Origin: an uncultured Rhodobacterales bacterium
Lineage (GTDB): Bacteria > Pseudomonadota > Alphaproteobacteria > Rhodobacterales > Rhodobacteraceae
NCBI GenBank assembly: GCA_964627355.1
Contig: CAZVIS010000001.1
Span: 37,086 to 101,085 of the forward strand
DNA length: 64,000 nt
Reading direction: 5' to 3'
Below are positions 3,889-20,015 of the stretch, piece after piece (within the stretch, counting starts at the first letter, position 1; every line of letters begins with the position of its first letter). The notes beneath the pieces are model-generated. The model saw only the letters and a program-made list of their open reading frames with translations, was not told the origin of the DNA and searched no databases. The position numbers and the translations under genes are program-made.

Positions 3889-4307
3889 TCGGCATTCCAA
3901 GGGTTAATCACGCGAACGCCGCAGCCGTCGAAATCCTTGACGTTGCGGGTGGCAATAGGGGCATCTGTGGCGCGGGCGATTGCGGCTATCTGGCAGTCGG
4001 CCTCGGCAATGGGTCGGCCCGCAGCGCGGCGCTGCGCCGCAATCTCGGCGTAGGCTTTGGCAGCAAGGCTATCGAAGGGCAGAACCCGTGACTGGAAATC
4101 CTGATCGATCATCGCGTCGATGGCCAGTTGCAGCCGGTCACGGCGCTGACCTTCCGGAAGGATCGCGACACCGGTGCGCAGTTCCGCCTCGGTGACCGCC
4201 GAGATGAACAGATCGCCTGCGTCATGGTCGCCGAACCAGTCCAGCACGATCTGGGCGGGCTCGGTCCGCATCAGTTCCGAGATTACGTTGGTGTCGAGGA
4301 GGATCAT
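3885..4307 (-). CDS. vapC: PIN-domain toxin VapC/FitB
   Basis: MILLDTNVISELMR... and ...PIATRNVKDF are typical PIN signatures. The gene lies directly downstream of a ribbon-helix-helix (RHH) antitoxin gene. Confidence 0.85.
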   Translation of the reverse strand: MILLDTNVISELMRTEPAQIVLDWFGDHDAGDLFISAVTEAELRTGVAILPEGQRRDRLQLAIDAMIDQDFQSRVLPFDSLAAKAYAEIAAQRRAAGRPIAEADCQIAAIARATDAPIATRNVKDFDGCGVRVINPWNAE

Positions 4308-4553: not shown

Positions 4554-4672
4554 GTTGCCCTCCGGTTGCAGCACTGAAGATAGGCAGTGATTGCATTGCA
4601 ATCAAGACAAAGTTGCCTTGCGGACCGGACCAGTTCTTACCAGTCTCCGTGATTATCGCATTGGAAATACAG

Positions 4673-5353
4673 CTATTTACCCGGCGATACGAGCCACGGC
4701 CGCACCTTCGGCATCGCCGCCGTCACCTCGACTTCGCGCAGCATCCCCCCCGCTATCAGCCCATCACGCACCCAGTCGATCGCGAGCCACCAGTCTTCAT
4801 AGCCGCATCGGGCAGATGCGATCTGCTCCGGGTGGGGCCGCCAGGTGACTGGGCAAGCGAGGATGTCTATGGTTCTCCATGTGCCTCGTGCGGTTGGGCC
4901 TTGAACCCGTATCCGCACGGTGCCCACCACGATGGTGGCGGAGCGTTCGCCATGCTGGTTCTGTTTGGTTTCGACCGGCACGCAGCGCGGCACGGCGTCG
5001 GGCATCCAGTCCGGGGTCAGCCCGGCCCTTGCCAGTTCCGCCACCCGGATCGCCATGCGGATGCCGCCGAGACTTTGGGGCATTCCGGCGACGGTGGCGG
5101 CGATCACCTCGGCATCCGGGTGGGTGTAGCTACCCCTCTTGTGCTGGCCGCCGTCCACTTTGCAGCCAAGCATGGCGCGTTGCAGCAGGACATACTCCAG
5201 GCCGAAGCCGAAGCCTTCCTCGGTCACGTCCTTTGGCGGGGGCAGTTCAAGTTGCGCCTTCTCCACACCAAACGTCCATTCGAGAGCCGCCTGCACGCCC
5301 AGCGCGCGTTTGATGCGGGTGCCGCCCGGGGCGATCTTTCCTTGCATCGTCAT
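4673..5353 (-). CDS. Conserved phage hypothetical protein (226 aa), paralog of 59386-60060
   Basis: ORF track. The ATG at 5353 forms an ATGA overlap with the stop at 5350-5352 of the upstream frame-B ORF. The second copy in the window has the same arrangement. Confidence 0.7.
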   Translation of the reverse strand: MTMQGKIAPGGTRIKRALGVQAALEWTFGVEKAQLELPPPKDVTEEGFGFGLEYVLLQRAMLGCKVDGGQHKRGSYTHPDAEVIAATVAGMPQSLGGIRMAIRVAELARAGLTPDWMPDAVPRCVPVETKQNQHGERSATIVVGTVRIRVQGPTARGTWRTIDILACPVTWRPHPEQIASARCGYEDWWLAIDWVRDGLIAGGMLREVEVTAAMPKVRPWLVSPGK

Positions 5354-6523
5354 TCGGGCCAACCTTCAAACAGCATCAACTGGGCCGGGCGCTGGGCCTC
5401 GCCCGATGGCCGCCAGATCCACGGGCCGGAGGCCATGGGCAGCTGCGAGAGCGCGCCACGCATGTGCTGCTGCCAGAGGGTGAACTCCGTTGCCGAGCAC
5501 GCGCAAAGCGCGTGCCCGATGGGCCAGCCCATCAGCCATCCGACGAAGAGCGGGTTCAGCCGCCGCCGCGCCCGACCCTTCAGGATTCGCCGCGAGACGA
5601 CGCGCCCATGCGAGGCAATCATCGAAGCCCAGAGCGGGCGCGAGATCGGGGCGTGCGGCGAGGACCGCTGCCCATCCGGCGTAATCGCCGGGACCGGGCG
5701 GGTGAAGCCCTGTTCCGCCCGGTAGTGCAGGATGTCCATCCGGGACTTGCCATCCGCCCGAGTAATGCTGGCCTCGCTGGATCCTTTCCAGTTCTGCGCC
5801 GCTGGTGTCGGCCATTGCGCGGCCTGCGCTGGAAGAGGTGGCGCCCCACCCGAACCGTAACTCTGGCCCGGGCCGCCCTTCGCGCCATCCGTCGCCTTCG
5901 GCGTCGACCAGTTGGTGATGCCCAGCGCCAGCGCCTCGGCCTTTCGGGTGAAGTCGCTGTTCCCGGCCGGGTTGTAGCGTTCCGTGCCCGGATGCAGGCT
6001 CATCGGTGTGGGCCAGGATGAAGATGCGCAGCCGCTGGTGCGGCGCGCCAACTTCTGCCGCCGAGAACAGGCCCGCCGCAGGCGTGTAGCCCATTGCCCA
6101 AAGCTCTCGCAGGACGGCTTCAAGGCCGAGGGTGACATGACCGGGGACGTTTTCGAGGAAGACCCACTTTGGGCGGCACTCGACGATGACGCGTGCGACA
6201 TCTGGCCAGAGGTGGCGGGGGTCGTCGGCGCCACCGCGCTTTCCGGCCGCGCTGAAGGGTTGGCAGGGATATCCGGCCAAGACCATGTCGAAAGCCCCGC
6301 GAAAGGGGCGGGCATAGAAGTTTCGCAGATCATCCCAGATTGGGGCAGGTGCGAAGTATCCTGCGCGCTGGGCGGCGATGAGGACGGCGCGGGGCCAGTC
6401 CTCCCACTCGACAAAAGCGCGGGTGTGATATCCGGGCTCTGCGAGCATGAGGCCCATATCCAGCCCTCCGCCGCCTGCGCAGAGGGATAATCCGTGCCGG
6501 GGACGTGACACCATGCCATTCAC
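5350..6523 (-). CDS. Phage C5-cytosine DNA methyltransferase whose coding signal changes frame after motif VIII (frameshifted or split gene)
   Basis: The frame of ORF 5366-6586 carries motif I LCAGGGG, motif IV YPCQPFS, motif VI FLENV and motif VIII QRLRIFILAH. The frame of ORF 5350-6519 carries WSTPKATDGAKGG, WPTPAAQNWKGS and RRLNPLFVGWLMGWPIGH. The GTG at 6523 overlaps the upstream stop as GTGA. Confidence 0.7.
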
Positions 6524-7488
6524 GCCACCACGCGCAGGTTGAGGCGCTCGCGCGTCACCAGCCCGCGTGCCAGCATCAGTCCGCACATCGTGGCACTGAT
6601 CATTCCCTTGGGCAGGTATTCGTCGGAGTTGACCTTGGCGGCATAGAAGGCCGCCAACTCATCCTCGCTGGGCGGAGGCGCTGCATCTGCCTTGCGCCGC
6701 CGCTTGGCCTTTGTGCCCTTTGCGGTCGCAAGTGCCGCCTGCGCATCGCGCTGGGCCGCCCGTTCCATGAACCGGTCGAGGGCCTTGGGGCCATCGGGCG
6801 GGTTCGGGTGATCGGTACGGGTCTCGAGCGCGACCTCGATGATCCGCGCATGCGACAACCCGAGGTTGTCGATCCAGCGCCGAACATGCGTCTTGGCTGG
6901 CCAGCCCTGCCACCAGGCGGGCAGGGTGGCATTGGCGGCAAAGCCCAGCGCCGTCAGCAGTTCTGCGAAGAACCGATCAAATTCGGCCTCGCGCGCAGCT
7001 GCGTCCTCCTCCTCCTTTACAGGTTTACTTAGGGGTTCTCTTACAAGGTTAGTCTCCGGATTCCGGAGATGGCTTTGGGCAAAATCCGGAGATGGGTTTG
7101 TCAGAAATCCGGAGGTGGCCCCATGTCCGGAATCCGGAGATGGGTTGTCGTCCTGTTCTTCCTCCGTTCCGGAAAGCCCATCTCCGCTTTCCGGACATGG
7201 CTCTTGTGGAAATCCATCCTCGAATCCCAAGATGTAGCGGGTGGCTTGCCGCTTGTGGGTGCGCGGATCGTGCACGCGGACGCGGTGGATCAGGCGCAAT
7301 TCCTCGAGTTTGGCCAGATGCGCGTTCAGCGCCGAGATCGACATTTCCGAGTCGTCGGCCAGCCGTTCCTGTGTGGGGAAGCAGCCGAAGTCGGGGTTGT
7401 GCCGGTCGCAGAGAAACCAGAGCACGATCTTGGTGGCGGGTTTAAGCCCGCGCTGCTGGATCGCCCAGACGGTGGCTTTGTGGCTCAT
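6520..7488 (-). CDS. wHTH replication-initiator-like protein (lambda O-like organisation)
   Basis: The N-terminus MSHKATVWAIQQRGLKPATKIVLWFLCDRHNPDFGCFPTQERLADDSEMSISALNAHLAKLEE looks like a winged HTH. A low-complexity linker is encoded by an iteron array. A paralog lies at 61320-62273. Confidence 0.6.
   Translation of the reverse strand: MSHKATVWAIQQRGLKPATKIVLWFLCDRHNPDFGCFPTQERLADDSEMSISALNAHLAKLEELRLIHRVRVHDPRTHKRQATRYILGFEDGFPQEPCPESGDGLSGTEEEQDDNPSPDSGHGATSGFLTNPSPDFAQSHLRNPETNLVREPLSKPVKEEEDAAAREAEFDRFFAELLTALGFAANATLPAWWQGWPAKTHVRRWIDNLGLSHARIIEVALETRTDHPNPPDGPKALDRFMERAAQRDAQAALATAKGTKAKRRRKADAAPPPSEDELAAFYAAKVNSDEYLPKGMISATMCGLMLARGLVTRERLNLRVVA
7062..7143. repeat. Four direct iterons TCCGGAG(A/G)TGG inside the rep-like gene (putative phage origin)
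   Basis: Copies start at 7062, 7085, 7108 and 7133, a spacing of 23, 23 and 25 bp. Related inverted or partial copies lie at 7178-7200. A lower-GC stretch at 7021-7054 is adjacent. The same array occurs at 61847-61928. Confidence 0.7.
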
Positions 7489-7880
7489 GGGGCGGCCCTC
7501 CGTGCTGGAAGCTGCGCCCGGCTGGTGAAGCCGTTGTCGGCCAAGGCACCCAGCGCGTCGTCAACCGAGCGCACCAGCGCCCAGCCAAAGCCCTGCGCGC
7601 AGACGGTGTCGCGGAAGACCTCCTGAGATTTGCGCAATCGGCCGGTTTCGCTTTTGACCTCGAGGAACAGCACGCGGCCGCCGCAGATCACGATCAGGTC
7701 GGCAAACCCGGCATGGACGCCCATGCCGACGAGGATCGATTGCCGCCTTGCGCCGCGGGGCCCGGCCTCGGTCACCTCGTTGGCGCAGTGATGGACGATG
7801 GCATCTCGGGGCAGGGCGAAGCGCAGGGCTTGGACAATGGCGCGCTGGGCGTCGGCTTCGGGGGTGCTGCGCCGATTCAT
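7485..7880 (-). CDS. VRR-NUC domain nuclease
   Basis: GFADLIVICGGRVLFLEVKSETGRLRKSQEVF shows the D...ExK and Q signature. The ATG at 7880 gives MNRRSTPEADAQRAIV. The stop overlaps the next gene. Confidence 0.75.
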   Translation of the reverse strand: MNRRSTPEADAQRAIVQALRFALPRDAIVHHCANEVTEAGPRGARRQSILVGMGVHAGFADLIVICGGRVLFLEVKSETGRLRKSQEVFRDTVCAQGFGWALVRSVDDALGALADNGFTSRAQLPARRAAP

Positions 7881-8143
7881 GCGGCACCGCCATTCGGGAA
7901 GGCCGCCGCCGCGATGGCATGCAGCGGGCGCCGATCCAGCAAGCGCAGCACCTCCAGCGCGTCGCCACATTCACGCGCATCGTCGGTTTGGCCGACCAGG
8001 ACACGGGCGGCGAGAATGATCAGGCTGTCCGGATGTTGCGTGGTATCGGCCAGAACGCCGCGCGCTTCGGTCAGGCGGTCTTGCATCCAATCGCCGGTGG
8101 TCGAGGTCGGAATGACGGGCGGGGAGGGCAACGGCGCGTTCAT
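7877..8143 (-). CDS. 88-aa conserved phage hypothetical protein
   Basis: ORF track. A paralog lies at 62659-62925; both share DWMQDRLTEARG...ILAARV....RRPLHAIA.AAF. Confidence 0.55.
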   Translation of the reverse strand: MNAPLPSPPVIPTSTTGDWMQDRLTEARGVLADTTQHPDSLIILAARVLVGQTDDARECGDALEVLRLLDRRPLHAIAAAAFPNGGAA

Positions 8144-8406
8144 CGCCGACCCCGCGACGGTGTTTTGCGGGCCTGTTCTCTGGTCTCAAGCCAGCTGCGC
8201 ACCGTGCTGCGCCGGTAATAGACCTTGCGCCCGAGCTTGATGCTTTGCGGCCCGGTGCGCCGCATATCCCAGCGCCAAAGCGTGTCCTCGGACACCCCGA
8301 GGCTGATCGCCAGATCATGCCGACTGATCCAGTCATCCAGCAGACCGATATCGGGCGCCGGTTGATTAATATCCTGCGTATCCAACATCCGTGATTCTCT
8401 CCCCAT
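8140..8406 (-). CDS. AlpA/MerR-type HTH, excisionase-like regulator
   Basis: ISRHDLAISLGVSEDTLWRWDMRRTGPQSIKLGRKVYYRRSTVRSWLE is HTH_17-like. The start may be at 8388 instead of 8406. A paralog lies at 62922-63170. Confidence 0.65.
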   Translation of the reverse strand: MGRESRMLDTQDINQPAPDIGLLDDWISRHDLAISLGVSEDTLWRWDMRRTGPQSIKLGRKVYYRRSTVRSWLETREQARKTPSRGRR

Positions 8407-8462
8407 TTGCGCCCGACTGCGGGCGGTTGCGACTCGGGTGCAGGGGAGCAGAGGAGGGGGGA

Positions 8463-8523
8463 TGGCAGGGTGGCATAAACCGGCATATTCAAAACGCAGT
8501 TCGTGCCACCCCTTGTTTTATTG
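8463..8523. promoter_or_regulatory. Shared ~60-bp element with an exact 17-mer TGGCAGGGTGGCATAAA, upstream of the AlpA-like gene
   Basis: The 17-mer is identical to 10641-10657, with partial similarity for about 45 bp beyond it. Both copies have the same orientation and a similar distance upstream of a minus-strand gene start. Confidence 0.5.
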
Positions 8524-8679
8524 ACGTTTTCTTCTGGTCGTATCGCCGGAATGGCGGCGAGTGATCTGGCGCAACAACAACCGAAGATTGCGTCGTCAGG
8601 GTGCCGCCGGGGAACCCTCAGCACGTCAGTGACCGGTGCCGCGCGCTCCCCCTATGGTAACTTTGACAAGGACGAAGCG

Positions 8680-9313: not shown

Positions 9314-9344
9314 GTTCAGGGCGAGTTCAACGCCCGCCCTGAAC
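9314..9344. terminator. Hairpin between the convergent genes 8680-9279 and the integrase gene
   Basis: GTTCAGGGC (9314-9322) pairs with GCCCTGAAC (9336-9344) around a 13-nt loop. The second arm lies inside the 3' end of the integrase gene. Confidence 0.3.
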
Positions 9345-10565
9345 AATGCGCAGCTGCGGCTTCATCATTTCCGCGACCGCATTGACCCCGTCCCGCAGCG
9401 GCGAGTCCATCATATGTGCATAGCGTTGCGTGGTGCGCATCTGGGAATGGCCCAGCAGCTTGCCGATCATTTCCAATGAGGCGCCGCCGCTGACCAGCAG
9501 GGAGGCGAAGGTGTGGCGCAGGTCATGGATCCGCACACCCGCAATTCCAGCCTTGATCTGGATCTGACGCCAGAAGCAGCGGATTTCCTTGACCGGCTGG
9601 CCCGGCACATCGCCGGGGAACAGCCACGGACAATCCTTGTGCACAGCCGTTTGCCGCTGGCGCACGATGGCGGCAACATCCGGTGAAATCGGCAGACGGT
9701 GGATCTTGCGCTGCTTGGTGGTGGTCGCGGGCTTCGACCATGTGGCAAACTCGAGGTTGAACTGCTCAAAGCGTGCGCAGCGCACCTCGCTAAGGCGGGC
9801 ACCTGTCAACATGCACATGCGGATGATGTTGGCGGCACGCTGGTCCTCGGCCACGCCCAGCGCGCTGGCCAGACGATCAATCTCATCCATGCTCAGATAG
9901 CGTTCGCGTTCGGTCTCGATACGCCGGTGAAACCCCATCGCCGGGTTGTCGGGGCGCATCTTCCACTGGACGGCAAGGTTGAACATCTTGCGCAGAACCT
10001 CGCCGGTTCGGTTGGCGCGGATCGGCGTCGGTTTCGATCCCTGCAGTTTGCGCGCGCGATTGTTGGGTTTGGCCTTGGACGGGCGGGCGCGGCCCATGGC
10101 CACTTGGGCAAGCAATCTGTCGACATCATCCAGCGTGACCTCCTCGACCAGCTTGTGCTTCCAGACCGGCTGGACCAGTTTGCGTAGCATGGATATCTGG
10201 TCAGAGCGATTGGTCGGTGCCAGATTGGGCAGATGGGTTTCGATATAGCGGTCGATCAGATCGGGGACCCGGGGGGCGGTCATCCCGGTTTCCCGTTCAC
10301 CTAGCGGGTCGCCACCATCGTCGATGATGCGGCGCAGCGCCTTGGCCTGTTCGCGCGCAGCGGTGACTGTCCACTCTGGCCATCTGCCGATGGTGAAGCG
10401 GCGCTGGCGACCCTTGACCCGGTAATCCAGCGTGAAATTCCTGCTGCCAGATGTGAAGACGCGCAGCGAAAACCCCCGCACGTCCTCGTCGAAAACCTGG
10501 TAAATGCCCGCCCGAGGCTCGGCGGCTCTGACCAGTTTTTCGGTCAGTTTCTCTCTTTGCGCCAT
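9327..10565 (-). CDS. int: Tyrosine recombinase / phage integrase
   Basis: The C-terminus reads ARLSEVRCARF...HDLRHTFASLLVSGGASLEMIGKLLGHSQMRTTQRYAH (R, HxxR and Y catalytic pattern). The ATG at 10565 gives MAQREKLTEKLV and is preceded by GGAGGTGG. Confidence 0.9.
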   Translation of the reverse strand: MAQREKLTEKLVRAAEPRAGIYQVFDEDVRGFSLRVFTSGSRNFTLDYRVKGRQRRFTIGRWPEWTVTAAREQAKALRRIIDDGGDPLGERETGMTAPRVPDLIDRYIETHLPNLAPTNRSDQISMLRKLVQPVWKHKLVEEVTLDDVDRLLAQVAMGRARPSKAKPNNRARKLQGSKPTPIRANRTGEVLRKMFNLAVQWKMRPDNPAMGFHRRIETERERYLSMDEIDRLASALGVAEDQRAANIIRMCMLTGARLSEVRCARFEQFNLEFATWSKPATTTKQRKIHRLPISPDVAAIVRQRQTAVHKDCPWLFPGDVPGQPVKEIRCFWRQIQIKAGIAGVRIHDLRHTFASLLVSGGASLEMIGKLLGHSQMRTTQRYAHMMDSPLRDGVNAVAEMMKPQLRIVQGGR

Positions 10566-10640
10566 GATGAACCACCTCCGTGCTGACGTGACACAGGCGT
10601 GATCCGCGCTGCAGTTCAACTCAAACATCGGCCGAAGGGG

Positions 10641-10701
10641 TGGCAGGGTGGCATAAAGTGGCAGATTGAAACGGACGTCTGTGCCGGTCACTTTTTTGTT
10701 C
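10641..10701. promoter_or_regulatory. Second copy of the TGGCAGGGTGGCATAAA element, upstream of int
   Basis: See 8463-8523. It contains three TGGCA half-sites at 8-10 bp spacing. Confidence 0.5.
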
Positions 10702-11040
10702 TGCAAGGCAGGGGGCGCTGGGCCAGACTATCCCCCGCTGACCCAGAAGCGCTGCGAGCTCGCACCTATCATTCGGATGAACGGAAGCAAGACGGAACTC
10801 TCGCGGTCGCCATCGCGCGTACGTTCTGTTCTCGGTGAGTGGGGGTAACAACCAGGCAACAAGATGTGCGGGGTAGCGGGCCACCGCTACCGCCGAGTCG
10901 GGGAAACCTGACGACCGCTGACCTGCCCCGGCCGACACACAGTGCTTGATGAGAAAAAGAAATACCGGTAGGCTTGGCGCCTGATGGTGACGGCGTTGCG
11001 TACCGCTCCGCTTGCAAACTGAGAATAAGAAAAGTGAATC

Positions 11041-12099
11041 GTGACAGCAGGGCAGTGCGCAAATCAGTTAACAGCGATTGATCTATTTTGTGGCGCCGGG
11101 GGCCTGACCCTCGGTTTGCAGCAGGCTGGATTCAAGGTTCTCGCGGGCGTCGAACTCGAGGAAATTCCTTCAAATACCTACAGGACGAACCACCCCGACA
11201 CACTCTGTTTTCAGAGTGACATTCGCCAATTGGGCGCTGCACAATTACTTAAGGCTGTTGGATTGAAGCGGGGCCAGCTTGACCTTTTGGCGGGGTGCCC
11301 CCCGTGCCAAGGCTTCTCAACACTTCGCACCCGCAAGAAGCAAATGGCGGTCACGGACGAACGAAATGATCTACTTTTTGAATTTCTTCGAATGGTCGAG
11401 GCATTGTCACCACGCGCATTAATGATGGAGAATGTTCCATCGCTAGCCAGTGACAGTCGAATGACGCAGTTTGTAAAGTGCATTTCGCGCCTCGGGTACC
11501 GTGTGAATCGTAAGAACGTGCGGGTGGTGAACGCCGCAGATTACGGTGTGCCTCAGCGGCGACAAAGGATGATTCTACTGGCTTCGAAAACAGGTCAGAT
11601 AAAGGATGCGGTACGCACCGAGACGTTAACAGTACGCCAATGCTTGGAGAGCGTCGGACTCCGGCCAGTCGGCGAGGCGGACGATCCGCTGCACGACCAT
11701 ATGCCGATCCGAACTGAGCGTGTGCAGGAGATCATTCGTAGCATCCCCAAAGATGGTGGTTCTCGTAGCGCCTTGCCCGAACATCTCGTGCTGTCGTGCC
11801 ACAAGAGCAAGGCCTCAGGATTCCGCGACGTGTATGGGCGCATGGCGTGGGATCGAGTGGCACCAACGATCACTGGAGGGTGCGGCAACCCCTCTAAGGG
11901 CCGCTACCTTCACCCAGAGGAAGACCGCGCAATAAGCCTCCGCGAGGCGGCTCTATTGCAGACTTTCCCAGTCAATTACCAGTTTGATTTATCCAAGGGA
12001 CGGGACAAGGTGGCACTTATGATCGGCAACGCGCTGCCCCCGGAGTTCATCAGGCGACACGCCTTTGCGATAGCGCAATCGCTTTCATCGGAAGACTGA
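11041..12099 (+). CDS. Dcm-type C5-cytosine DNA methyltransferase
   Basis: Motif I is DLFCGAGGLTLG, motif IV is GCPPCQGFS, motif VI is MMENVP and motif VIII is QRRQRMILLA. The start is GTG. GC is about 50% against mid-60s in the flanks. Confidence 0.9.
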   Translation: MTAGQCANQLTAIDLFCGAGGLTLGLQQAGFKVLAGVELEEIPSNTYRTNHPDTLCFQSDIRQLGAAQLLKAVGLKRGQLDLLAGCPPCQGFSTLRTRKKQMAVTDERNDLLFEFLRMVEALSPRALMMENVPSLASDSRMTQFVKCISRLGYRVNRKNVRVVNAADYGVPQRRQRMILLASKTGQIKDAVRTETLTVRQCLESVGLRPVGEADDPLHDHMPIRTERVQEIIRSIPKDGGSRSALPEHLVLSCHKSKASGFRDVYGRMAWDRVAPTITGGCGNPSKGRYLHPEEDRAISLREAALLQTFPVNYQFDLSKGRDKVALMIGNALPPEFIRRHAFAIAQSLSSED

Positions 12100-12100
12100 C

Positions 12101-14068
12101 ATGATTACAAACACCCAACTTCACCTGGGGTTTCATGGTCGGATAATCGAGCATATCGGTATCCAGATGTACCAGAGCCCTACCGCTGCCCTGGCTGAAA
12201 TTGTTTCTAATGCTTGGGACGCGGACGCTACTGAAGTTGATATTTTGTTTGACTTCGACGCGGACCGAAAGACTGAGTGGACGATCACCATTCTGGACAA
12301 CGGCAATGGCATGACGAAGGAAGAATGTCAGCAGAAGTTTCTAAGCGTTGGCTTCAACAGGCGAGAGCAGGACGGTCCAAAAGCGACATCGTCCCAAAAG
12401 CTGCGCCCGTTGATGGGCCGGAAGGGGATTGGCAAGTTCGCAGGCTTTGGAATCGCGCGCTTTATCAAGATTGATACGGTGAGTAGGGAAACCGGCGAAC
12501 AGACAGTTTTTGAGTTGGATCAAGAAGTCATACGGAAAGGTGACAGCTACGTATCGACGAGTGCGCTGGATATTGCCGCGACCCACTCTGAGAGCGCGAC
12601 CAATCGCCATCATGGCACAAAGATAATACTGCGCGACCTGGACCTAGCCCGCCGAATACCAATGGAACAGTTTCGCGCCTCACTTGCCCGGCGCTTTTTG
12701 ATAAACAGCATTGCGGACGAGTTTGTCGTGAAGGTGAACGAAGTTGCAATCTCGGACAGCACAGACATTTCTACCATTGAGATGAGTTTTCCGCGCGACC
12801 TGCCGGACAATGACAGAACTGAGCGCGGGGTGACGGTCGATAGTGACGGTTGGGGCACGGAGACCGTTTCCGAGGGGAAGGTGGTACGCTGGCGAGTTCA
12901 GTTCTTTAAGGAATTGGTCAAGAACGAAGAGCTTTTCGGTGTTACAATCTTCGCTCATAAAAAGCTGGCACAGAGACCGTTCATGTTCAATCTGTCGGGC
13001 GGTTTGGCAAGTCAGGCAGGGCCAGAATACATGTCGGGACAGGTTGTGGCAGACTGGGTGGACGAGTTTGGCGACGACGTGATCTCTACCGAGCGACAGA
13101 GGTTACGGTGGGAACACGCAGAACTTGCCGAGTTGCAAGCTTGGGGACAGGCGCTGATCCGTCGGCTACTCTCGATTTGGAAAAGCAACCGCAACAGCGA
13201 AAAGCTGCGGCTGTTGGAGGCCAAGGTCGGGACGTTCGCGGAACGCTTGAAGGCGCTGGGTTCCGAAGGTGCAACTGTCCGCACTGCACTATCTAAACTG
13301 GCATCAGTCGAAAAACTCTCTTCAAGCCAGTTTCAGGATTTAGGCTCAGCTATCCTGCTCGCGTGGGAGGGGGGGCGCCTAAAAGGACTGATTCAAAAAA
13401 TCGCGCGAACGGATGACATGGACGAGGCCGAGCTCGTCGGGATACTTGCTGAAGCCAATGCGATTACAGCGCTGCATACTGCGGAAACTGTCAATGCGAA
13501 GTTACAGGCGATCAGCGGTCTGGAATCGAGGATTGCCCGAAAAGAGCTGGAGAATGCGGTCAGGGACTACATCGCGCAGAACCCATGGCTGATTTCTCCT
13601 CGTTGGGAAACCTTCGCTGTCGAAAAACGGCTTGCCACGATTTGCGACAGTGCCGCTGGCGAGTCCTTCAAGAACAGTGATGACTTCAACAAAAGAGTGG
13701 ACCTAATTCTGACCAGTGACCAGCAGCTCCTGGTCCTGGAGTTCATGCGGCCAGGGATCACGCTCGACGCAGACCATCTCAGACGTTTCGGCCAATATAT
13801 GGATATTCTGCAAGAATACATCGAGCAGAACACTGGATTGGGTTTGAAATATTTGACCGGTTACATCGTCGCTGACAAGCTCGCCCAGCGATCAGGGCAC
13901 GCGACTCAAATCAAGAACATGAACAATATTGGTCGGTACGCCATGGACTGGGAAACGCTAATCCAACAGGCCAAGCATCAGTGGAAAGAATTTTTGGTTC
14001 ATGTGAAAGAGCGTTCGCCACATGACGCCCGCCTCAACGCGGTGGGAACAGAAATTGTTGAAAGTTGA
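12101..14068 (+). CDS. GHKL (Bergerat-fold, MORC/MutL-like) ATPase with a nuclease-like C-terminal motif
   Basis: The N-box is LAEIVSNAWDADA, G1 is ILDNGNGMT and G2 is MGRKGIGKFAGFG. The C-terminus KRVDLILTSDQQLLVLEFMRPG resembles a PD-(D/E)xK (Shedu/DUF4263-like) core. The ATG lies 1 nt after the MTase stop. Confidence 0.75.
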   Translation: MITNTQLHLGFHGRIIEHIGIQMYQSPTAALAEIVSNAWDADATEVDILFDFDADRKTEWTITILDNGNGMTKEECQQKFLSVGFNRREQDGPKATSSQKLRPLMGRKGIGKFAGFGIARFIKIDTVSRETGEQTVFELDQEVIRKGDSYVSTSALDIAATHSESATNRHHGTKIILRDLDLARRIPMEQFRASLARRFLINSIADEFVVKVNEVAISDSTDISTIEMSFPRDLPDNDRTERGVTVDSDGWGTETVSEGKVVRWRVQFFKELVKNEELFGVTIFAHKKLAQRPFMFNLSGGLASQAGPEYMSGQVVADWVDEFGDDVISTERQRLRWEHAELAELQAWGQALIRRLLSIWKSNRNSEKLRLLEAKVGTFAERLKALGSEGATVRTALSKLASVEKLSSSQFQDLGSAILLAWEGGRLKGLIQKIARTDDMDEAELVGILAEANAITALHTAETVNAKLQAISGLESRIARKELENAVRDYIAQNPWLISPRWETFAVEKRLATICDSAAGESFKNSDDFNKRVDLILTSDQQLLVLEFMRPGITLDADHLRRFGQYMDILQEYIEQNTGLGLKYLTGYIVADKLAQRSGHATQIKNMNNIGRYAMDWETLIQQAKHQWKEFLVHVKERSPHDARLNAVGTEIVES

Positions 14069-14460
14069 TCGCGGTTTCTGACGTTCGTTAACGGTCCGTC
14101 GCTGCGCTACCCCACCCCGTGTTCCGTGCGCCAGTGGTCCGATGTCCCGATCAGTTCCACCGCCACGAGGCAGTTTCGGCGGACGCAAAACAGAATCTGG
14201 CATTCGCTGTGACAGGCAAGAAAGCACGGCAAGTGGCAGCTGGAATCGTAAATATTCGGCGCGTTGAAGCGAAAAAGATTGATCATAATCGTACTCGTTC
14301 GAGTCAACGCTAAGTCAACGGACAGACGCGGTTTTGGGCAGATCCAGCGCAGTTGAGTGCAGGCGAATCTTGCGGGATGCAGGGCAATAAAGCGCGTGAT
14401 AACAAAAGCCTGTCGCCTAAGCTGTTGAAATGTATAAGCCCCGGAAATCGCATAGCATTT

Positions 14461-14507
14461 GGCTCATAACCTGAAGGCCGCAGGTTCAAATCCTGCCCCC
14501 GCAACCA
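14461..14507 (+). other. 3' fragment (47 nt) of initiator tRNA-Met: anticodon loop (CAT), T-arm, acceptor 3' strand and CCA. Looks like an att-type scar.
   Basis: GGCTCATAACCTGAAGGCCGCAGGTTCAAATCCTGCCCCCGCAACCA matches the 3' part of bacterial tRNA-fMet. The upstream sequence has no CGCGGGG acceptor strand or D-arm, so the gene is incomplete. Confidence 0.8.
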
Positions 14508-14713: not shown

Positions 14714-17239
14714 TCATGAACTGAGCAGATCTGCGAGTGCTTGCATTCCACCTTGCCCTCCGCCTGTGGACAAGCGGTTCTCAAAAAACTGCCCGATGAT
14801 AGCGCGCAATGCTGATGTGTCCTCGCGAGCAATCGCTCGTTGAGCTTCCAATACGAGGCGATCATGCAGCGCCTTGTCTACGGCGGCGTACCGTTCCTGT
14901 CCCAGATGAACGACAAGACCGACAAGGAACTCTGGATCGCGGAAAAGAATCCCAAACCGGAGACCGTTCATCTCCTGAAGGGCTCGCTCAGTTGCTTCGA
15001 AGTCCTCGGTGCGCAGTGCTCGATGCGCGGTTCCGGAAAGGCGATCAAAACGATCAATTTCCACCGCCTCAGCTTTGCCACGCAGTTTGTCGAAGGCCGC
15101 CTCTATGCTTTCCAATTCCGCCGAAAGCGTGCGTCCGCGGTGCTCGGGCTTTTGGCGCAATACGGCAATGTCCTGACGAACGCGCCTCGCTTCCTCGGCC
15201 GCAGAACGATGCGTTTCCGCGTCAACGGAAGTCGACAATGCAGCGTGCTGGTCGTCCAGACGTCGGCTTAGCTTTTCCACGGCTTCTTCAGTGGACGGCC
15301 CAAGAACTTCAGCAGCCGCCTCTATAGCTTGCTCGGCCTCAAGGAGGAGGGCATTGGCAAGATCGGCACCCTCTTTTCCGTCGTAGTTCGCGTGGCCAGC
15401 TTCGGGCAGGTACAGGTCGCGCGCTTCAATAACCCGCCCCAGATCGGGTGCCTCCACCGCCAGAACCAGGAGATGGTTGTCCTCGATACGCCACCTGAGA
15501 TTAAGCATCTCACCACGCCGGATACGCTCCCCTGGATCAAGATGGCGCTGCGCATCAAGGCGGAAGTCACCCACGGAAAGCGAGAATTCCGGGTCGTCGA
15601 TCTCGTCGGTCTTCTGAAAGAGCTCGACCTTGATGTGTCCAGCCTCGCCGCCACGCAGGTCTCGTGCAACGCGGACGGGAGTGACCCCTTCTGCCGGTAG
15701 CGCCGTACCCTTCTCAACCAGAATCTCAAGGCCGTTGCGTTCCTGGCCAACTTGACCCTTCTGGACTTTGACGGCCAAAGTGTAGGTCATGGGAATGCTT
15801 CCGGACATCGCACCCAAGCGCTCGATGGTGATCTCACGACTGGCTGAGGGTAGGCGCAGCCCCGATGGATCAGTGACCTCCACAACAAACGTGTTCGCTC
15901 CCATGCGTGGAAGCCGAAGGTCAAATTTCATGCCGCCGATAAGAGGGGCCTTTCCAAACGTCACGCCATCGCGGCCAGTCACTTCAACTACGTAGCCTGG
16001 TGGAGTAGATGCCGACGTCTTGATGGTAAGCCTTGTGGTCTCGTCAGCAGCAGTGGCTGCATAGTCATATGAAACCTCGATCTCTCCGCTCGTCTTCTCG
16101 CTCCGGCGCACCGTCTTCCCCCGAGCGCCTGCGTCCGACCACTCTCTGGTTGCAGCGAATATCGAGGCTCCTGTTGCGACCGCCGTCATGGGATCGAGTC
16201 CATGCTGTACGTCTATTCCGAGTTCGCGCGGAACCGTATCCCGGATGAGGGGCATCTTCGATGGGCCACCGATCAGAACAACTCGCTCCACGTCGTCCGG
16301 ACCAAGCCCGCTGCTGCGGAGGATCTTGCGGCAGAGGTCAATGGATTCGGAGACCTTTTCTTCGACGAGTTCTTCAACATCAGCCCGCGTAAGGTCGACC
16401 GAAAGGAAGATGTCCGCGCCACTGGCGTCAGTTACGCGCGCTTCTTCGTCCCCCGCGTGTATTGTCGTAGTGTCCATCGTGGACAGGTCGATCCGCGCCT
16501 TTTCAACCGCGTGCCGAGCAATGCCAAGGAGCCTCTTGTAGCGAGGATCCTTGTGAAAATCTGCCGGAATGTCGAAGTTCTCCTCCAGCCAGGGGCGGAC
16601 ATGGCTATCCAAAATCCGTCGGTCGAAATCACGACCGCCGAGCATGTTGATCCCCTCGTGGGCGAGAACGGTGACGCTTCCCTTTATGCTCTGCACCAAT
16701 GCCAGATCGAATGTGCCGCCACCGATGTCATAGACGAGGAACACGCCATTCGGGGTCTTGCTACCCGCCACCGATGCCATGGCCGCCGCGACGGGCTCTT
16801 GAACGAGCGTTACGTGGTCCAGTCCGGCCATCCGGGCCGCCCTGATCGTCGCTTCACTCTGCATTTGATTGAAGGCAGCAGGAATGGTGACGACTGTTCC
16901 TTCGAGTTGGAATTCGCCGGCTTCCATGCGCGCCTGCCCGACCAATGTGCGCAAAATCTCGGCGCTACACTCCTCCGGCGTCCAATCGACGCCCGCCCCA
17001 TCGAAGTGAATCGGGCTGTTTGTTCCCATCAGCCTCTTGAACCCGTGTGCTGTGTTCTCTGGAGACGTGAAGATTCTGGAATAGGCGCCGTTGCCCACAA
17101 AACGGTGATTCCGCTTGTCGAGGTAGATCACGCTCGGCAGCACGTCCGTCCCGTCAGCGGTCTTGAACAGCCGCGTGGTTCCGTCAGCATGACCAACCAC
17201 CACAGAGTTCGAAGTGCCAAGATCGATTCCCAGATGCAT
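14714..17239 (-). CDS. Non-canonical Hsp70/DnaK-like ATPase (841 aa) with a long helical C-terminal extension
   Basis: Phosphate-1 is LGIDLGTSNSVV, phosphate-2 is VYDIGGGTFDLALV and the adenosine motif is VVLIGGPSKMPLIRD. About 300 extra C-terminal residues follow. The ATG shares one base with the upstream stop (TGATG). Confidence 0.9.
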   Translation of the reverse strand: MHLGIDLGTSNSVVVGHADGTTRLFKTADGTDVLPSVIYLDKRNHRFVGNGAYSRIFTSPENTAHGFKRLMGTNSPIHFDGAGVDWTPEECSAEILRTLVGQARMEAGEFQLEGTVVTIPAAFNQMQSEATIRAARMAGLDHVTLVQEPVAAAMASVAGSKTPNGVFLVYDIGGGTFDLALVQSIKGSVTVLAHEGINMLGGRDFDRRILDSHVRPWLEENFDIPADFHKDPRYKRLLGIARHAVEKARIDLSTMDTTTIHAGDEEARVTDASGADIFLSVDLTRADVEELVEEKVSESIDLCRKILRSSGLGPDDVERVVLIGGPSKMPLIRDTVPRELGIDVQHGLDPMTAVATGASIFAATREWSDAGARGKTVRRSEKTSGEIEVSYDYAATAADETTRLTIKTSASTPPGYVVEVTGRDGVTFGKAPLIGGMKFDLRLPRMGANTFVVEVTDPSGLRLPSASREITIERLGAMSGSIPMTYTLAVKVQKGQVGQERNGLEILVEKGTALPAEGVTPVRVARDLRGGEAGHIKVELFQKTDEIDDPEFSLSVGDFRLDAQRHLDPGERIRRGEMLNLRWRIEDNHLLVLAVEAPDLGRVIEARDLYLPEAGHANYDGKEGADLANALLLEAEQAIEAAAEVLGPSTEEAVEKLSRRLDDQHAALSTSVDAETHRSAAEEARRVRQDIAVLRQKPEHRGRTLSAELESIEAAFDKLRGKAEAVEIDRFDRLSGTAHRALRTEDFEATERALQEMNGLRFGILFRDPEFLVGLVVHLGQERYAAVDKALHDRLVLEAQRAIAREDTSALRAIIGQFFENRLSTGGGQGGMQALADLLSS

Positions 17240-17610
17240 CAGGCTTCTCCTTCCAAGCGGCGATCGACGGTAACAGCCCCGAGAGCAACCACGCGCTCCT
17301 GCGCGAGTATTGTGGGTTCATTGGTAAAGGCAACGATCAGCTCATCTTCCGTCGTGAACTCATCGCCGTTCAGAACACGGACCGGCAAGCCCGGGTGAAA
17401 CGGCTGGCCGTCAAACACCGCGACACGCATTCCGGCCTCGGTCAGCACCGACTCAAGTCGCGTGAGCGCGTACCGACTTTGCGCGGCCGCTCTCGCGCCG
17501 AGGTCATCACCCACGTTATCTCGAAGACGATCATAGGCGCGCAGGAGCCGCCAGTATTCCACAGCAAGTCGAGCGAACGAAGATGACAGGTTGGCGGCTG
17601 GTTCGGTCAT
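17239..17610 (-). CDS. GrpE-like protein (putative nucleotide-exchange factor), 123 aa
   Basis: The C-terminal half GMRVAVFDGQPFHPGLPVRVLNGDEFTTEDELIVAFTNEPTILAQERVVALGAVTV follows the GrpE beta-domain pattern (G..v....G..FdP..H.A.........V...GY......R.A.V.V). The ATG at 17610 forms an ATGA overlap with the upstream stop. Confidence 0.55.
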   Translation of the reverse strand: MTEPAANLSSSFARLAVEYWRLLRAYDRLRDNVGDDLGARAAAQSRYALTRLESVLTEAGMRVAVFDGQPFHPGLPVRVLNGDEFTTEDELIVAFTNEPTILAQERVVALGAVTVDRRLEGEA

Positions 17611-19475
17611 TGGTTCAAAAGTTCTCTCTGGGTTTCGATGTCCCACTCGGCATCTGCTGGCAGACGTGGATGATCGCGCTTGAAAGCACGTAGTGCCGCA
17701 ACGGACCTTGCACCGAAGCCGCCATCGACACTCGACCCGTAGTAGCCGAGTTCCTGAAGCCTGCGCTGCACAATACGTGCGTCGTCAGCATTTCGAAGGT
17801 CCAGAAGCCGGGCAGGCGTTTCGATCGTGCCAGTAGAGAATGGTGGATTCGGTGACGTTGGTTGGGGCGACGGGTCTGCAGCAGGTCGCGCCAGCTGTGG
17901 CGCCGCAGTTGACGCTGGAGCTTGGGATCCACGCCATCCTGCAAGAATTGCAGAGGCTTCACGCTGTAGCTTTGCATCTTCTCTCAAGGCTTCTGCCTGT
18001 ACAGGAGCCAGAGCGCCCTCGCGATAAGTGTAGCTTCCGCATCGCGCATTCCAGGTATCGACAAGCTCGTTGAAGCGGTTGACCTCGGTTTCACTGATTT
18101 CGAAGATCATTTCGCGCAAATGATTCAGGCGCGCATCCTGGAAAACGCAATATCGAATCTCTGGAGTTGTGAGGGGTCTGCCAACATAGGGAATCGGAGC
18201 AGTTTCGCCCTGGGAGTTTGCCTCAGTCGTTAGTGAAGGCGACGGGGGTCTTGCGACTAGCGTGGGGCTTGGCGAAGGTGTCCGTGGACTGGGAGCCTCT
18301 GATTGCGAGAACAAAAGCAACCCGCCCACAATGGCAACTACGACCCATATGGCGCCCGGAATGCCCGTCCTTCTTTCCGCTGCTGGGACGCGAGAAGTTG
18401 GTGAGGCGGGAGGCGGGGCACGTGTAACGGGCTCCTGCCGTGCAGCCTGCTGGACTTTGGCAGGTGGAGCCGGTTGAGTCGGAAGGCGCCGGACAATCTC
18501 TTCCAGAGTTTGCACATCATTGCCCAGTTTGGAGGCGATGCTGTCAAGTTCTGGAAACGTCGTGAGGAGCGCGCGTGTTAAGGCCAGCGCTTCCCGGTGT
18601 CGACCCTTTTCATTTGCCAGCCAAAGGCAAAAGTCTCGGATTTCTATGCACAGCCGTCTTGAACGTTCTTCTTCATGCCCTTCGGCCTGCTCAAGCAGCT
18701 GTACAGGCTGATTAATGTCATCCCAAGCAACCAACAGGTTCTGCAGTCGTTCGACCACTTTGGATGCGGTATGTGGAATAACTCTGCATCGGTCCATCTC
18801 GGACATGACCATTTCGCGCACTTCTTCGAGTCGCAGTTCAGAGGCCCTGTCGTATTCGCGCACGATTCGGCGGAGCATTGGCCCCAATGAATTCTGCTTT
18901 ATGGCCGTTTCGACCATTCCGGTCAGCGCAGCGGCCCCTCTAGCGTTCTGAACTTCAATGCTTCCCACAGCCTGACGAGCGTGAGCGTCCTCGAGCTTCT
19001 TCAACGCCTCGTCGAAGTGCTCCCGGTCAGGTCTCGGAATTCCAGCGCGTTGCCTTGAAGTGGCAATCGCTTGGAAAGCCTTGCCCCGGTCAAGTTCTGA
19101 CCATGCTTGGATGAGCACGGACAACGGTGCCGTGCTGCCGGGAAATCGGCCGCAAATATGCGCCGCAGCGTTGGCCTTGGCGAGCGGAGAAGCCTGTCGC
19201 GCGGCGGCCAGAGCTGAATCTTGATCCCCGCGAAGAACATCGTTGGAAAGAGAAATTGCTGCCTCGGAGGAAACATCCGCAAACCAACCCACTTCAGCCT
19301 CAAGACGAAGTCGGGGTGGGATCAGGGTCTGCTGCGCCTTTGCAGCTGTTGCCTCGTCAGAACGACCATCAACCACTGCGTCTTGACCAAGTTCGAATAT
19401 GTCGTCGGCACTGGCATCAAGGGGCGCACCGAGAACGTGAAAGGGGTTGAGCGTCAGATCAAACACCACAGCCAC
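17607..19475 (-). CDS. Membrane-spanning protein: J-domain-like N-terminus (no HPD seen), one TM helix, C-terminal peptidoglycan-binding domain
   Basis: The N-terminus reads LNPFHVLGAPLDASADDIFEL. The TM segment is RRTGIPGAIWVVVAIVGGLLLFS. The C-terminus IVQRRLQELGYYGSSVDGGFGARSVAALRAFKRDH matches the PG_binding_1 pattern. The GTG start is preceded by GGAG. Confidence 0.7.
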   Translation of the reverse strand: MAVVFDLTLNPFHVLGAPLDASADDIFELGQDAVVDGRSDEATAAKAQQTLIPPRLRLEAEVGWFADVSSEAAISLSNDVLRGDQDSALAAARQASPLAKANAAAHICGRFPGSTAPLSVLIQAWSELDRGKAFQAIATSRQRAGIPRPDREHFDEALKKLEDAHARQAVGSIEVQNARGAAALTGMVETAIKQNSLGPMLRRIVREYDRASELRLEEVREMVMSEMDRCRVIPHTASKVVERLQNLLVAWDDINQPVQLLEQAEGHEEERSRRLCIEIRDFCLWLANEKGRHREALALTRALLTTFPELDSIASKLGNDVQTLEEIVRRLPTQPAPPAKVQQAARQEPVTRAPPPASPTSRVPAAERRTGIPGAIWVVVAIVGGLLLFSQSEAPSPRTPSPSPTLVARPPSPSLTTEANSQGETAPIPYVGRPLTTPEIRYCVFQDARLNHLREMIFEISETEVNRFNELVDTWNARCGSYTYREGALAPVQAEALREDAKLQREASAILAGWRGSQAPASTAAPQLARPAADPSPQPTSPNPPFSTGTIETPARLLDLRNADDARIVQRRLQELGYYGSSVDGGFGARSVAALRAFKRDHPRLPADAEWDIETQRELLNQ

Positions 19476-19769: not shown

Positions 19770-20015
19770 TCACCTGCACGTCCGCGCCTGGTCGCGCAGG
19801 ACGGCATAGTCGCTGAGCATCCCGATAAGGACCGTGCCCTCTGGCAAGGTCGCGATCTCGGCTGCGGCTTTGCTCTGTTCGGCCGGACTGTACTCCACGA
19901 CAGGCGGGCAGGGTGCGTGGCCTTCAGAACCTGCCATCGCGCATGCGCTCAGCCAAAGCATCGCGATCAGCGGGGCGACGGCTGGCGGCGTCCAGCATCT
20001 GGCGTTGGATTTCAT
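19770..20015 (-). CDS. Lipoprotein, o-spanin-like
   Basis: It has the lipobox MLWLSAC. It starts inside the preceding gene (overlapped spanin architecture) and lies at the end of the lysis cassette. Confidence 0.55.
   Translation of the reverse strand: MKSNARCWTPPAVAPLIAMLWLSACAMAGSEGHAPCPPVVEYSPAEQSKAAAEIATLPEGTVLIGMLSDYAVLRDQARTCR

Follow-up and report, generated by a model that had tools for sequence, protein, structure and literature searches.

The 64-kb window analysed here, the whole 64,000-nucleotide stretch of contig CAZVIS010000001.1 from an uncultured Rhodobacterales bacterium, carries on its minus strand three linked genes, here called A, B and C, whose products are a membrane protein with a J-like N-terminus, a small protein with a predicted GrpE fold and a divergent Hsp70 (Table 1). 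Both junctions are start/stop overlaps, so that the operon is translationally coupled, and rereading of the coordinates and the sequence bore out the three open reading frames (ORFs) and the overlaps described in an earlier note on this DNA. An identical metagenome contig with an independent gene call gave products of 622, 123, and 841 aa and the same overlaps. The G+C content of the triad is 57-59% and that of the prophage DNA to its right is 68-69%. RefSeq product names for the plasmid copies of the three are 'hypothetical', 'hypothetical', and 'Hsp70 family protein', and because A and B are named only 'hypothetical' the operon is invisible to annotation-based surveys. The triad is best described as a mobile module, anchored in the membrane, for which an Hsp70 cochaperone system has been put to new use.

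Table 1. Positions of the triad genes, their domains and the neighbouring features in the window.
Feature	Position	Strand	Description	Basis
Gene A	17607..19475	(-)	622 aa, bitopic inner-membrane protein	ORF call
A 1-65	19281..19475	(-)	J-like domain with HPD segment deleted	Helix pattern and hhalign
A 66-335	18471..19280	(-)	Cytoplasmic all-alpha solenoid	Model, pLDDT >95
A 371-391	18303..18365	(-)	Single transmembrane helix, RR on N-terminal (cytoplasmic) side	Kyte-Doolittle
A 430-516	17928..18188	(-)	Periplasmic helical domain, two nearly invariant cysteines (C443 and C479)	Model and conservation
A 564-617	17625..17786	(-)	Peptidoglycan-binding domain PG_binding_1	Pfam
A-stop/B-start overlap	17607..17610	(-)	ATGA, 4 nt	Sequence CAATGACC, read directly
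Gene B	17239..17610	(-)	123 aa from its ATG, miniature protein with predicted GrpE fold	ORF call
B-stop/C-start overlap	17237..17241	(-)	TGATG, shared 1 nt	Sequence CCTGATGCAT, read directly
Gene C	14714..17239	(-)	841 aa, divergent Hsp70	ORF call
C 1-363	16151..17239	(-)	Nucleotide-binding domain	Pfam and alignment to DnaK structures
C ~385-480	15800..16087	(-)	Inserted Ig/cadherin-like beta-sandwich between nucleotide-binding and substrate-binding domains	Weak Cadherin-like matches
C ~485-600	15440..15787	(-)	Probable divergent substrate-binding beta domain	hhalign, HMMER
C 611-841	14714..15409	(-)	Ala/Glu/Leu/Arg-rich C-terminal region, presumed helical lid and extension	Composition
MmeI-family type IIL restriction-modification enzyme	1123-3900	(-)	925 aa	All five MmeI Pfam domains
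C5 methylase (second, truncated-looking)	5366-6586		Within cluster 4613-8624	
Tyrosine integrase	9327-10706			
Dcm-type C5 methylase, then GHKL-ATPase restriction enzyme	11041-14068	(+)	352 aa and 655 aa, 1-nt gap	
tRNA-fMet 3' fragment	14437..14507	(+)	Anticodon arm to CCA, att-type scar, 207 nt past end of gene C	
Prophage late region	19770-43356	(-)	Lambda-type terminase (gpA), portal, tail, and lysis genes	

Judged by its sequence, C is a member of the Hsp70 superfamily with a complete catalytic residue set. The Pfam HSP70 model matches residues 3-363 (E 3.4e-62), the only part of C that Pfam and NCBIfam assign to Hsp70, and this actin-fold nucleotide-binding domain aligns to DnaK structures at about 40% identity. 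The catalytic and phosphate-binding residues are all kept in this alignment (D6, T9, K68, E148, D171, G173-175, T176, and D178), and the catalytic residues are invariant columns among 32 homologues. Full-length homologues at 50% identity or more number over 120, and full-length orthologues at 32-36% identity were found in other lineages. The earlier note had taken the genes for a paralogous Hsp70 set and not the housekeeping dnaK-dnaJ-grpE, and the NCBIfam scores of C agree with this: 234 bits against an equivalog cut-off of 823 for DnaK (TIGR02350) and 204 bits against 709 for HscA (TIGR01991), with the HscC-type cut-off likewise far above its score.

The positions that we take to be the J-domain contacts of DnaK, R167, N170, and an acidic patch (E206, D208, E209, D211, and E217), are altered throughout. 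In the alignment to DnaK structures, R167 is replaced by T144 and N170 by Q147 of C; within the acidic patch, E206 is replaced by Q, E209 by S and D211 by K, and D208 and E217 are deleted. A hydrophobic DVLLLD interdomain linker and R167 are established features of DnaK-type Hsp70s. C has no such linker, and its sequence after the nucleotide-binding domain reads ...ATREWSDAGARGKTVRRSEK.

The Hsp70 nucleotide-binding motifs had been recognised earlier and stand, but the helical extension of about 300 aa proposed for the remainder of C does not. Weak domain matches along C point to a beta insert and then to a probable substrate-binding beta domain, after which some 230 residues remain as a tail; the supposed extension is therefore a beta insert plus a longer, presumably helical tail. 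The insert has weak Cadherin-like matches (E 0.002-0.007), which recur in three of five orthologues, and a weak immunoglobulin (Ig) match. The probable substrate-binding domain was aligned by hhalign (C 503-598 against DnaK/HSPA1A substrate-binding sequences entered by hand; P 0.004 over 85 columns), and a weak second HMMER stretch, not significant alone, aligns to DnaK 413-466; orthologues of C carry a second HSP70 stretch in precomputed Pfam tables. Ala, Glu, Leu, and Arg make up 50% of the residues of the tail and Pro 1.7%. The tail, which from its composition is presumed to be a helical lid plus an extension, is conserved family-wide, with invariant positions up to residue 821.

The relationship of B to GrpE emerged from its predicted fold. 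B had no Pfam, NCBIfam, or PADLOC match; it did not reach the gathering score of Pfam GrpE (PF01025) and did not match that model even at E 10, its family profile gave no GrpE signal against PDB sequences, and an hhalign comparison with E. coli GrpE was not informative. When 1.84 billion representatives were searched with a profile, the B family came to 638 clusters at E < 1e-3, and 67 of these made up the alignment for an AlphaFold2 model. The model has a predicted local distance difference test (pLDDT) score of 94.4 and consists of a helical hairpin (residues 4-58) and a beta domain (61-117). A hairpin that forms a four-helix bundle in the dimer, with a compact beta domain after it, characterises the GrpE fold. 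The top eight Foldseek matches in the PDB were all GrpE or GrpEL1 (9bls_C, 8gb3_E, 9a81_A, 9blt_C, 4ani_A, 1dkg_A, 9blt_B, and 3a6m_A; probability 0.72-1.00 over 107-129 columns), from human, Mycobacterium, Bacillus, Geobacillus, E. coli, and Thermus, with TM-scores of 0.42-0.55 when normalised to the query. Because all eight are GrpE/GrpEL1, B is predicted to be a GrpE-fold protein without the long N-terminal paired helix, as its model begins directly with the hairpin, from residue 4. Among the weak Pfam matches of family members, GrpE is the most frequent (8 of 67 members, best E 0.0025), and some relatives have N-terminal extensions or fusions. The GrpE-like character that the earlier note proposed for B is therefore seen in AlphaFold2 and Foldseek results, and B is presumed, from its modelled fold, to be a dedicated nucleotide exchange factor for C.

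A opens MAVVFDLTLNPFHVLGAPLDASADDI, and an HPD tripeptide is absent anywhere in the protein. The AlphaFold2 model of A has a mean pLDDT of 84.6, and residues 1-330 are all helical with pLDDT >95. Helices 11-15, 23-35, 41-51, and 54-62 of the model fit the helix pattern of a J domain, and hhalign of the N-terminal profile against seven J domains gave P 5e-4 to 9e-4 over 55 columns. The alignment has an 8-residue gap exactly at KYHPD, the HPD of J domains lying between helices II and III, and at this place the consensus of the A family is D-G. The hhalign score of 22 was not reached by any of 200 column-shuffled profiles (mean 9.1, maximum 19). Pfam DnaJ was not matched by hmmscan at E up to 10, the family profile of A picked out no J domain among PDB sequences, and the N-terminus is termed J-like and not a J domain because the hhalign probability was only 23-32%. 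Resemblance of A and B to J domains and GrpE, which the earlier note had left to profile searches, was thus invisible to general sequence profiles and appeared in targeted profile-profile alignment for A and in the predicted fold for B.

The J-like segment is followed by a solenoid that contains the most conserved motif of the A family, W-D-x-I-N-Q-P-V-Q...G-H-E-E-x-R-S (residues 251-272). Foldseek searches of the PDB and viral libraries with the whole A model returned weak TPR-like matches (E 0.03 or worse) or tape-measure-like noise. A disordered Pro/Ala-rich linker precedes the membrane helix and a Pro/Ser-rich linker comes after it. The Kyte-Doolittle 19-residue maximum is 2.32 at residue 371, and this is the sole segment at or above 1.6. 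The periplasmic domain is modelled as four helices (437-456, 462-479, 489-498, and 500-516; pLDDT 85-96), and the motif around its cysteines, (I/V)RYCxFQ...RFNxLVxDxNxRC, is conserved family-wide. The C-terminal domain matches PG_binding_1 (Pfam E 4.4e-9, 36.8 bits against a cut-off of 23), and the family profile matches the peptidoglycan-binding domain of SleB (6tci_A, E 1.2e-6). Helix pattern, hydropathy and Pfam thus agree with the earlier description of A as a protein with a J-like, HPD-less opening, a single membrane helix preceded by RR, and a peptidoglycan-binding end. The 36 homologues of A, all named hypothetical, vary in the outside part, which may be PG_binding_1, PG_binding_2, or LysM, or may be lacking altogether past the membrane helix; Rhodobacterales versions stop just past it. 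The wall tether is present here and frequent in the family, but it is neither universal nor defining.

The deletion of HPD in A and the loss of R167 and the acidic patch in C indicate that the J-Hsp70 interface has diverged on both sides, which would insulate the triad from the host DnaK, DnaJ, and GrpE. By sequence, the triad falls outside DnaK/HscA, the GrpE sequence family, and the J-domain proteins (it has no HPD), although it is built like an Hsp70-exchange factor-J system. The reading of the triad as a tripartite, orthogonal Hsp70 machine is well supported, and A, B, and C very probably form one dedicated machine.

A scan limited to a single genome for each species yielded 30 loci, distributed over Paracoccaceae, Roseibium, Hyphomonadaceae, and Stakelama, and the order A-B-C was kept in every locus long enough to judge (~27). 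Plasmids of Agrobacterium vitis, Sinorhizobium, and Aminobacter also carry the triad, which is spread across several bacterial phyla. The A protein of Aminobacter, at 27% identity, has the same architecture with two peptidoglycan-binding repeats. The Hydrogenedentota counterpart of A is a LysM protein of 1050 aa whose homology to A is unambiguous (hhalign probability 100%, E 7e-68), and the gene order there is A homologue, GYF/RDD membrane protein, 123-aa B homologue, and 843-aa Hsp70. The fourth gene of these Hydrogenedentota contigs (L051-L054), which encodes the GYF_2 plus RDD membrane protein, lies between the A homologue and the GrpE-like gene; in L054 the A homologue is missing and the RDD gene is retained. 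IS21 borders the Hydrogenedentota operon, and a HEPN_Swt1-SNF2 helicase does so as well in L051 and L053. In one Paracoccaceae locus (L010:12560-16325), the triad Hsp70 is split into residues 1-453 and 453-841, about 1.2 kb apart, in an insertion-like arrangement.

B also occurs outside the A-B-C form, where its module is fused to HSDR_N, Mrr_N, or N-terminal regions without a family match, and every fusion examined sits directly upstream of an Hsp70. Two such two-gene forms were compared. One (L045:8001-12088) encodes a fusion of HSDR_N, a restriction-type nuclease fold, to the GrpE module and an 833-aa Hsp70; the other (L046:8001-17053) encodes a 350-aa fusion and a shorter Hsp70 of 706 aa. 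Both Hsp70s align to C end to end at 32-36% identity. The conserved core is therefore B plus C, with A as one of several front ends. The 706-aa Hsp70 gene is followed by an AAA ATPase gene and two large unknown ORFs.

The surroundings of the triad at other loci are rich in defence and mobility genes. At one locus (L039) it directly follows BREX genes (PglX-like methylase, PglZ, and BrxL), and at another (L040), on an element that carries ArdC, it has a CBASS operon on one side and a SNIPE nuclease with an integrase on the other. A small integrase/helix-turn-helix/MobC element holds the triad at three chromosomal sites (L005-7), one of them beside MmeI and HipA, and a further locus has it beside IS21 and an AAA_15 ATPase. 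The plasmid copies adjoin a restriction endonuclease, Fic/VbhA, RelE, a Gabija-like ATPase-helicase pair, and a RES toxin. In a survey of the three nearest ORFs per side at 26 further loci (136 ORFs), the commonest neighbouring families were integrase, resolvase, ResIII, NikA, relaxase, UvrD/GajB, T5orf172/MUG113, ABC-3C CTD10, Type I and Type ISP restriction, mad2, and DRT-helicase. The cluster was earlier held to be accessory DNA, and its differing flanks and its presence on integrative elements and plasmids, beside restriction-modification, BREX, CBASS, toxin-antitoxin, and Gabija-like genes, confirm that it is accessory and mobile. A fixed core-genome position without mobile genes, named in the earlier note as evidence to the contrary, was not seen in related loci, because the triad is found in varied flanks, integrative elements, and plasmids. 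Residence in defence islands and mobile elements is, in qualitative terms, a property of the triad.

Because it is mobile and lies among anti-phage genes in several phyla, the triad is a credible defence candidate, and a role in defence, drawn from genomic association, is plausible. We consider the chance about even that the triad serves in inter-genomic conflict, as anti-phage or anti-plasmid defence or exclusion. The fusion of a small GrpE-like protein to HSDR_N/Mrr_N restriction-type domains beside an orthologous Hsp70 also speaks for such a role.

Under this conflict reading, C would be an ATP-driven, client-binding engine, and B, as a minimal GrpE, would reset C, and only C, by release of ADP. 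A is placed in the inner membrane; its J-like domain and solenoid are cytoplasmic, and its disulfide-type domain is periplasmic, in many homologues together with a peptidoglycan-binding domain. Most likely A would keep C on the inner side of the envelope by way of an HPD-less interface of a non-canonical kind. Either an envelope event or an invader protein bound by the probable substrate-binding domain of C might then shift the nucleotide or client state of C. The output could be that C clamps the invader protein, or that it releases or remodels A so that infection fails. That the Hsp70 serves as a switch coupled to an envelope signal is, like the contacts of A and B with C, something we infer, and any particular trigger or output has a small chance at best of being the right one.

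Several observations weigh against a defence role and the machine behind it. The neighbour survey was qualitative, with crude longest-ORF calls and without a formal background control, and ordinary genes adjoin the triad at some loci (aldo-keto reductase and imuB-dnaE2 at L041; transporters at L055). Pfam and Foldseek recognised no toxic or enzymatic effector domain in A, B, or C. No system model of PADLOC-DB v2 was satisfied, A and B had no match there, and C had a single one, to PDC-M61B, which was marginal (E 9.5e-4 over 90 residues); no NCBIfam defence model was matched by A, B, or C. The J-domain similarity of A is weak (hhalign probability 23-32%, against J sequences entered by hand), and the A-C and B-C contacts are putative. 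None of 50,697 GenBank phage genomes carries the triad, and one IMG/VR contig does. This near-absence from phages argues against phage-borne exclusion but not against defence. The triad as a usual phage cargo was rejected on the same counts.

A broader form of the conflict reading takes the GrpE-like protein and the long Hsp70 as a general immunity chassis that accepts different front ends; in full, including capture at entry and nuclease arming, this is improbable. A would park the Hsp70 under the inner membrane, as in the mitochondrial import motor or Sec63-BiP. There the Hsp70 might act on invader proteins during their passage through the membrane (phage ejection or pilot proteins, for example, or a relaxase from conjugation), capturing, ratcheting, or unfolding them, so that a chaperone motor would halt infection at entry. 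Elsewhere, in lineages where the GrpE module is fused to a restriction-type nuclease, this nuclease is what the chassis would arm. In the mitochondrial presequence motor (mtHsp70, Tim44, Pam18, the HPD-less J-like Pam16, and Mge1), the Hsp70 is held at the inner membrane face by partners, one of them J-like and HPD-less, and works with a GrpE-type exchange factor. The likeness to the triad is a functional analogy: no translocon, HPD-bearing J partner, or Tim44-like protein was identified for the triad, and no homology is known beyond the shared Hsp70, GrpE, and J folds.

The main rival to a conflict role is a mobile stress or proteostasis module, in which an Hsp70 with its own exchange factor and membrane adaptor protects or assembles envelope proteins or signals stress, conferring tolerance and not immunity. 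All three proteins have folds of chaperone systems, C keeps a probable substrate-binding domain, A has a cell-wall-binding domain by Pfam, the triad contains no toxin-type effector, and some loci have ordinary metabolic neighbours. Parallels exist in HscC-DjlB/DjlC, in the action of DjlA-DnaK on the Rcs pathway, and in transmissible heat-resistance and protein-quality-control islands, and E. coli HscC and other DnaK derivatives have been reviewed as specialised chaperones of unknown role (PMC8215388; PMC13580251). However, no heat-shock, protease, or small-HSP genes lie beside the triad at any locus examined; the neighbours are integrases and restriction-modification, BREX, CBASS, and toxin-antitoxin genes. 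Moreover, A has no HPD, C lacks the hydrophobic linker and R167 needed for a canonical client cycle, and in relatives of B the GrpE-like part is joined to a DNA-binding domain or a nuclease domain of restriction type. We regard a proteostasis role as unlikely, though worth serious consideration.

A selfish function, in which the triad would be an addiction, entry-exclusion, or establishment module serving an island, a plasmid or the neighbouring prophage and not general immunity, has a slim chance. It might block the entry of a competing element or aid membrane insertion of element proteins. The triad does lie within small integrase/MobC/NikA elements and on conjugative or mobilizable plasmids, and in the window it occupies a typical cargo position, starting 295 nt downstream of prophage spanin/endolysin genes and stopping 207 nt short of an att scar of tRNA type. 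Yet its G+C content differs from that of the prophage, it is absent from the phage genomes searched, and many element types carry it, not one. This function overlaps the defence reading, and the two are hard to separate by sequence alone. ARC6/ZipN, which crosses the membrane once and carries helical repeats and a J-like domain, tethers a cytoskeletal ring, and its similar layout (J-like domain, helical repeats, one transmembrane helix, and an outside domain) could suggest that A is an envelope or division scaffold that organises a cytoplasmic assembly at the membrane with Hsp70 help, but a patchy, mobile, plasmid-borne distribution is ill-suited to a core cell-biology role, ARC6 is not in the top 50 Foldseek PDB matches of the A model, and we consider this highly improbable.

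Like the canonical DnaK-DnaJ-GrpE system, the triad combines an Hsp70 ATPase, a protein of predicted GrpE fold, and a J-like partner, here encoded together. The differences extend to each component. C, at 841 aa, has the putative beta-sandwich insert and long tail and lacks the DVLLLD linker, R167, and acidic patch of DnaK; B, at 123 aa, lacks the long N-terminal helix of GrpE; and A lacks the HPD, Zn-finger, and C-terminal client domains of DnaJ and is a wall-anchored membrane protein. The canonical system belongs to the core genome, and the triad is a mobile operon of the accessory genome.

The nearest studied bacterial parallel to the triad is HscC with DjlB and DjlC. DjlB and DjlC reportedly carry a functional HPD J domain and HscC is said to need no exchange factor (work attributed to Kluck et al. 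in 2002), whereas in the triad HPD is absent and a dedicated protein of predicted GrpE fold is present. The lid of HscC is shortened and that of C appears extended. Like C, HscC is a non-essential, specialised Hsp70 beside its own membrane-anchored J-type partners, DjlB (YbeS) and DjlC (YbeV) (PMC8215388).

Literature searches found no described Hsp70-based defence system with the architecture of the triad. The earlier statement that no such system had been described holds in this sense but overlooks a predicted HSP70-GrpE-DnaJ/TPR theme (Kaur, Burroughs, Iyer, Aravind 2020; PMC7159879), which is the closest conceptual precedent. That work predicted membrane-proximal GAP1-N2 conflict systems with HSP70, GrpE, and a DnaJ/TPR-fused partner, acting against invaders at the membrane; like the triad, they carry peptidoglycan-binding ectodomains, and their GYF plus transmembrane proteins are paralleled in the Hydrogenedentota version. 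These systems are themselves predictions without experiments (PMC7159879). They are defined by GAP1-N2, one or two TRAFAC GTPases, and FNIII-repeat proteins and occur mainly in Actinobacteria and Firmicutes (PMC7159879), whereas no GAP1-N2, GTPase, or FNIII component was found among the window ORFs and Pfam matches around the triad or in annotated related loci. C also resembles CnuD/CnuCD of CoCoNuT systems, predicted defence loci whose Hsp70-like protein has, after its nucleotide-binding and substrate-binding domains, a HEAT-like helical region (Bell et al. 2024, PMC11090510). The partners of CnuD are an McrBC-type GTPase and nuclease, and its Walker-A-like motifs are degenerate, suggesting a poor ATPase (PMC11090510); C, unlike CnuD, has invariant catalytic residues and a partner of predicted GrpE fold, and no McrBC is nearby. 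Membership of the triad in CoCoNuT or GAP1-N2 systems was rejected, as the defining partners are absent. DnaK-like domains fused to EACC1-protease modules form a third precedent.

Hsp70 systems are among the best-studied machines, and this family is a compact, three-gene, horizontally mobile version with its own putative minimal exchange factor and with both sides of the canonical J-Hsp70 interface altered, HPD being deleted in A and R167 and the acidic patch lost in C. A 2026 review described bacterial DnaK derivatives as unexplored 'dark matter' (PMC13580251). If the triad is a defence system, ATP-driven chaperones would join the known classes of immune sensors and motors, and a testable link would connect cell-wall events to cytoplasmic responses. 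If not, the triad would be a natural orthogonal Hsp70 circuit, useful for understanding and engineering partner specificity.

The triad was earlier placed between two prophages, and this is borne out for the right flank only; the left flank is an integrase island with phage-like genes. The right-hand prophage includes an S49 protease, a tape measure, and a tail module of gene-transfer-agent (GTA) type (DUF2460, BR0599, the GTA_TIM/Rcc01698 host-specificity protein, and DUF2793). The last genes of its late region, which shares the strand of A and stops 295 nt upstream of it, encode an M15 endolysin and overlapping spanin-like products, and the spanin-like ORF at 19770-20015 has a lipobox. The GTA_TIM match raised the possibility of a mere GTA cluster, which was rejected since terminase, portal, protease, tape measure, endolysin, and spanins make up a full prophage.

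A restriction-modification-like island beside the triad, also proposed earlier, is represented by the Dcm methylase and GHKL restriction enzyme, with MmeI on the left flank. The 655-aa GHKL enzyme is of BbrUII/HgiDII type, with an NCBIfam score of 290 bits where the equivalog cut-off is 550. The proposed tRNA-fMet att scar was found as a 3' fragment at 14437-14507, but it scores 22.3 bits with Rfam tRNA, under the threshold of 29, and ARAGORN found no tRNA in the 64-kb window; its 28-mer is unique, and there is no second copy of the fragment in the window.

The Dcm and GHKL genes, oriented convergently to the triad, make up a compact restriction-modification pair of type II, and MmeI homologues also flank the triad in two unrelated loci (L007 and L039). 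The cluster at 4613-8624, left of the integrase, also holds HTH_36 and VRR-NUC proteins; it is phage-like and possibly the remnant of another element. A 64-nt direct repeat, 72% identical (8459-8522 and 10637-10700), brackets the integrase, the second copy overlapping its 5' end. A Gly-rich, fibre-like ORF lies within the prophage late region, and two N6/N4 DNA methylases are encoded at 46991-50087.

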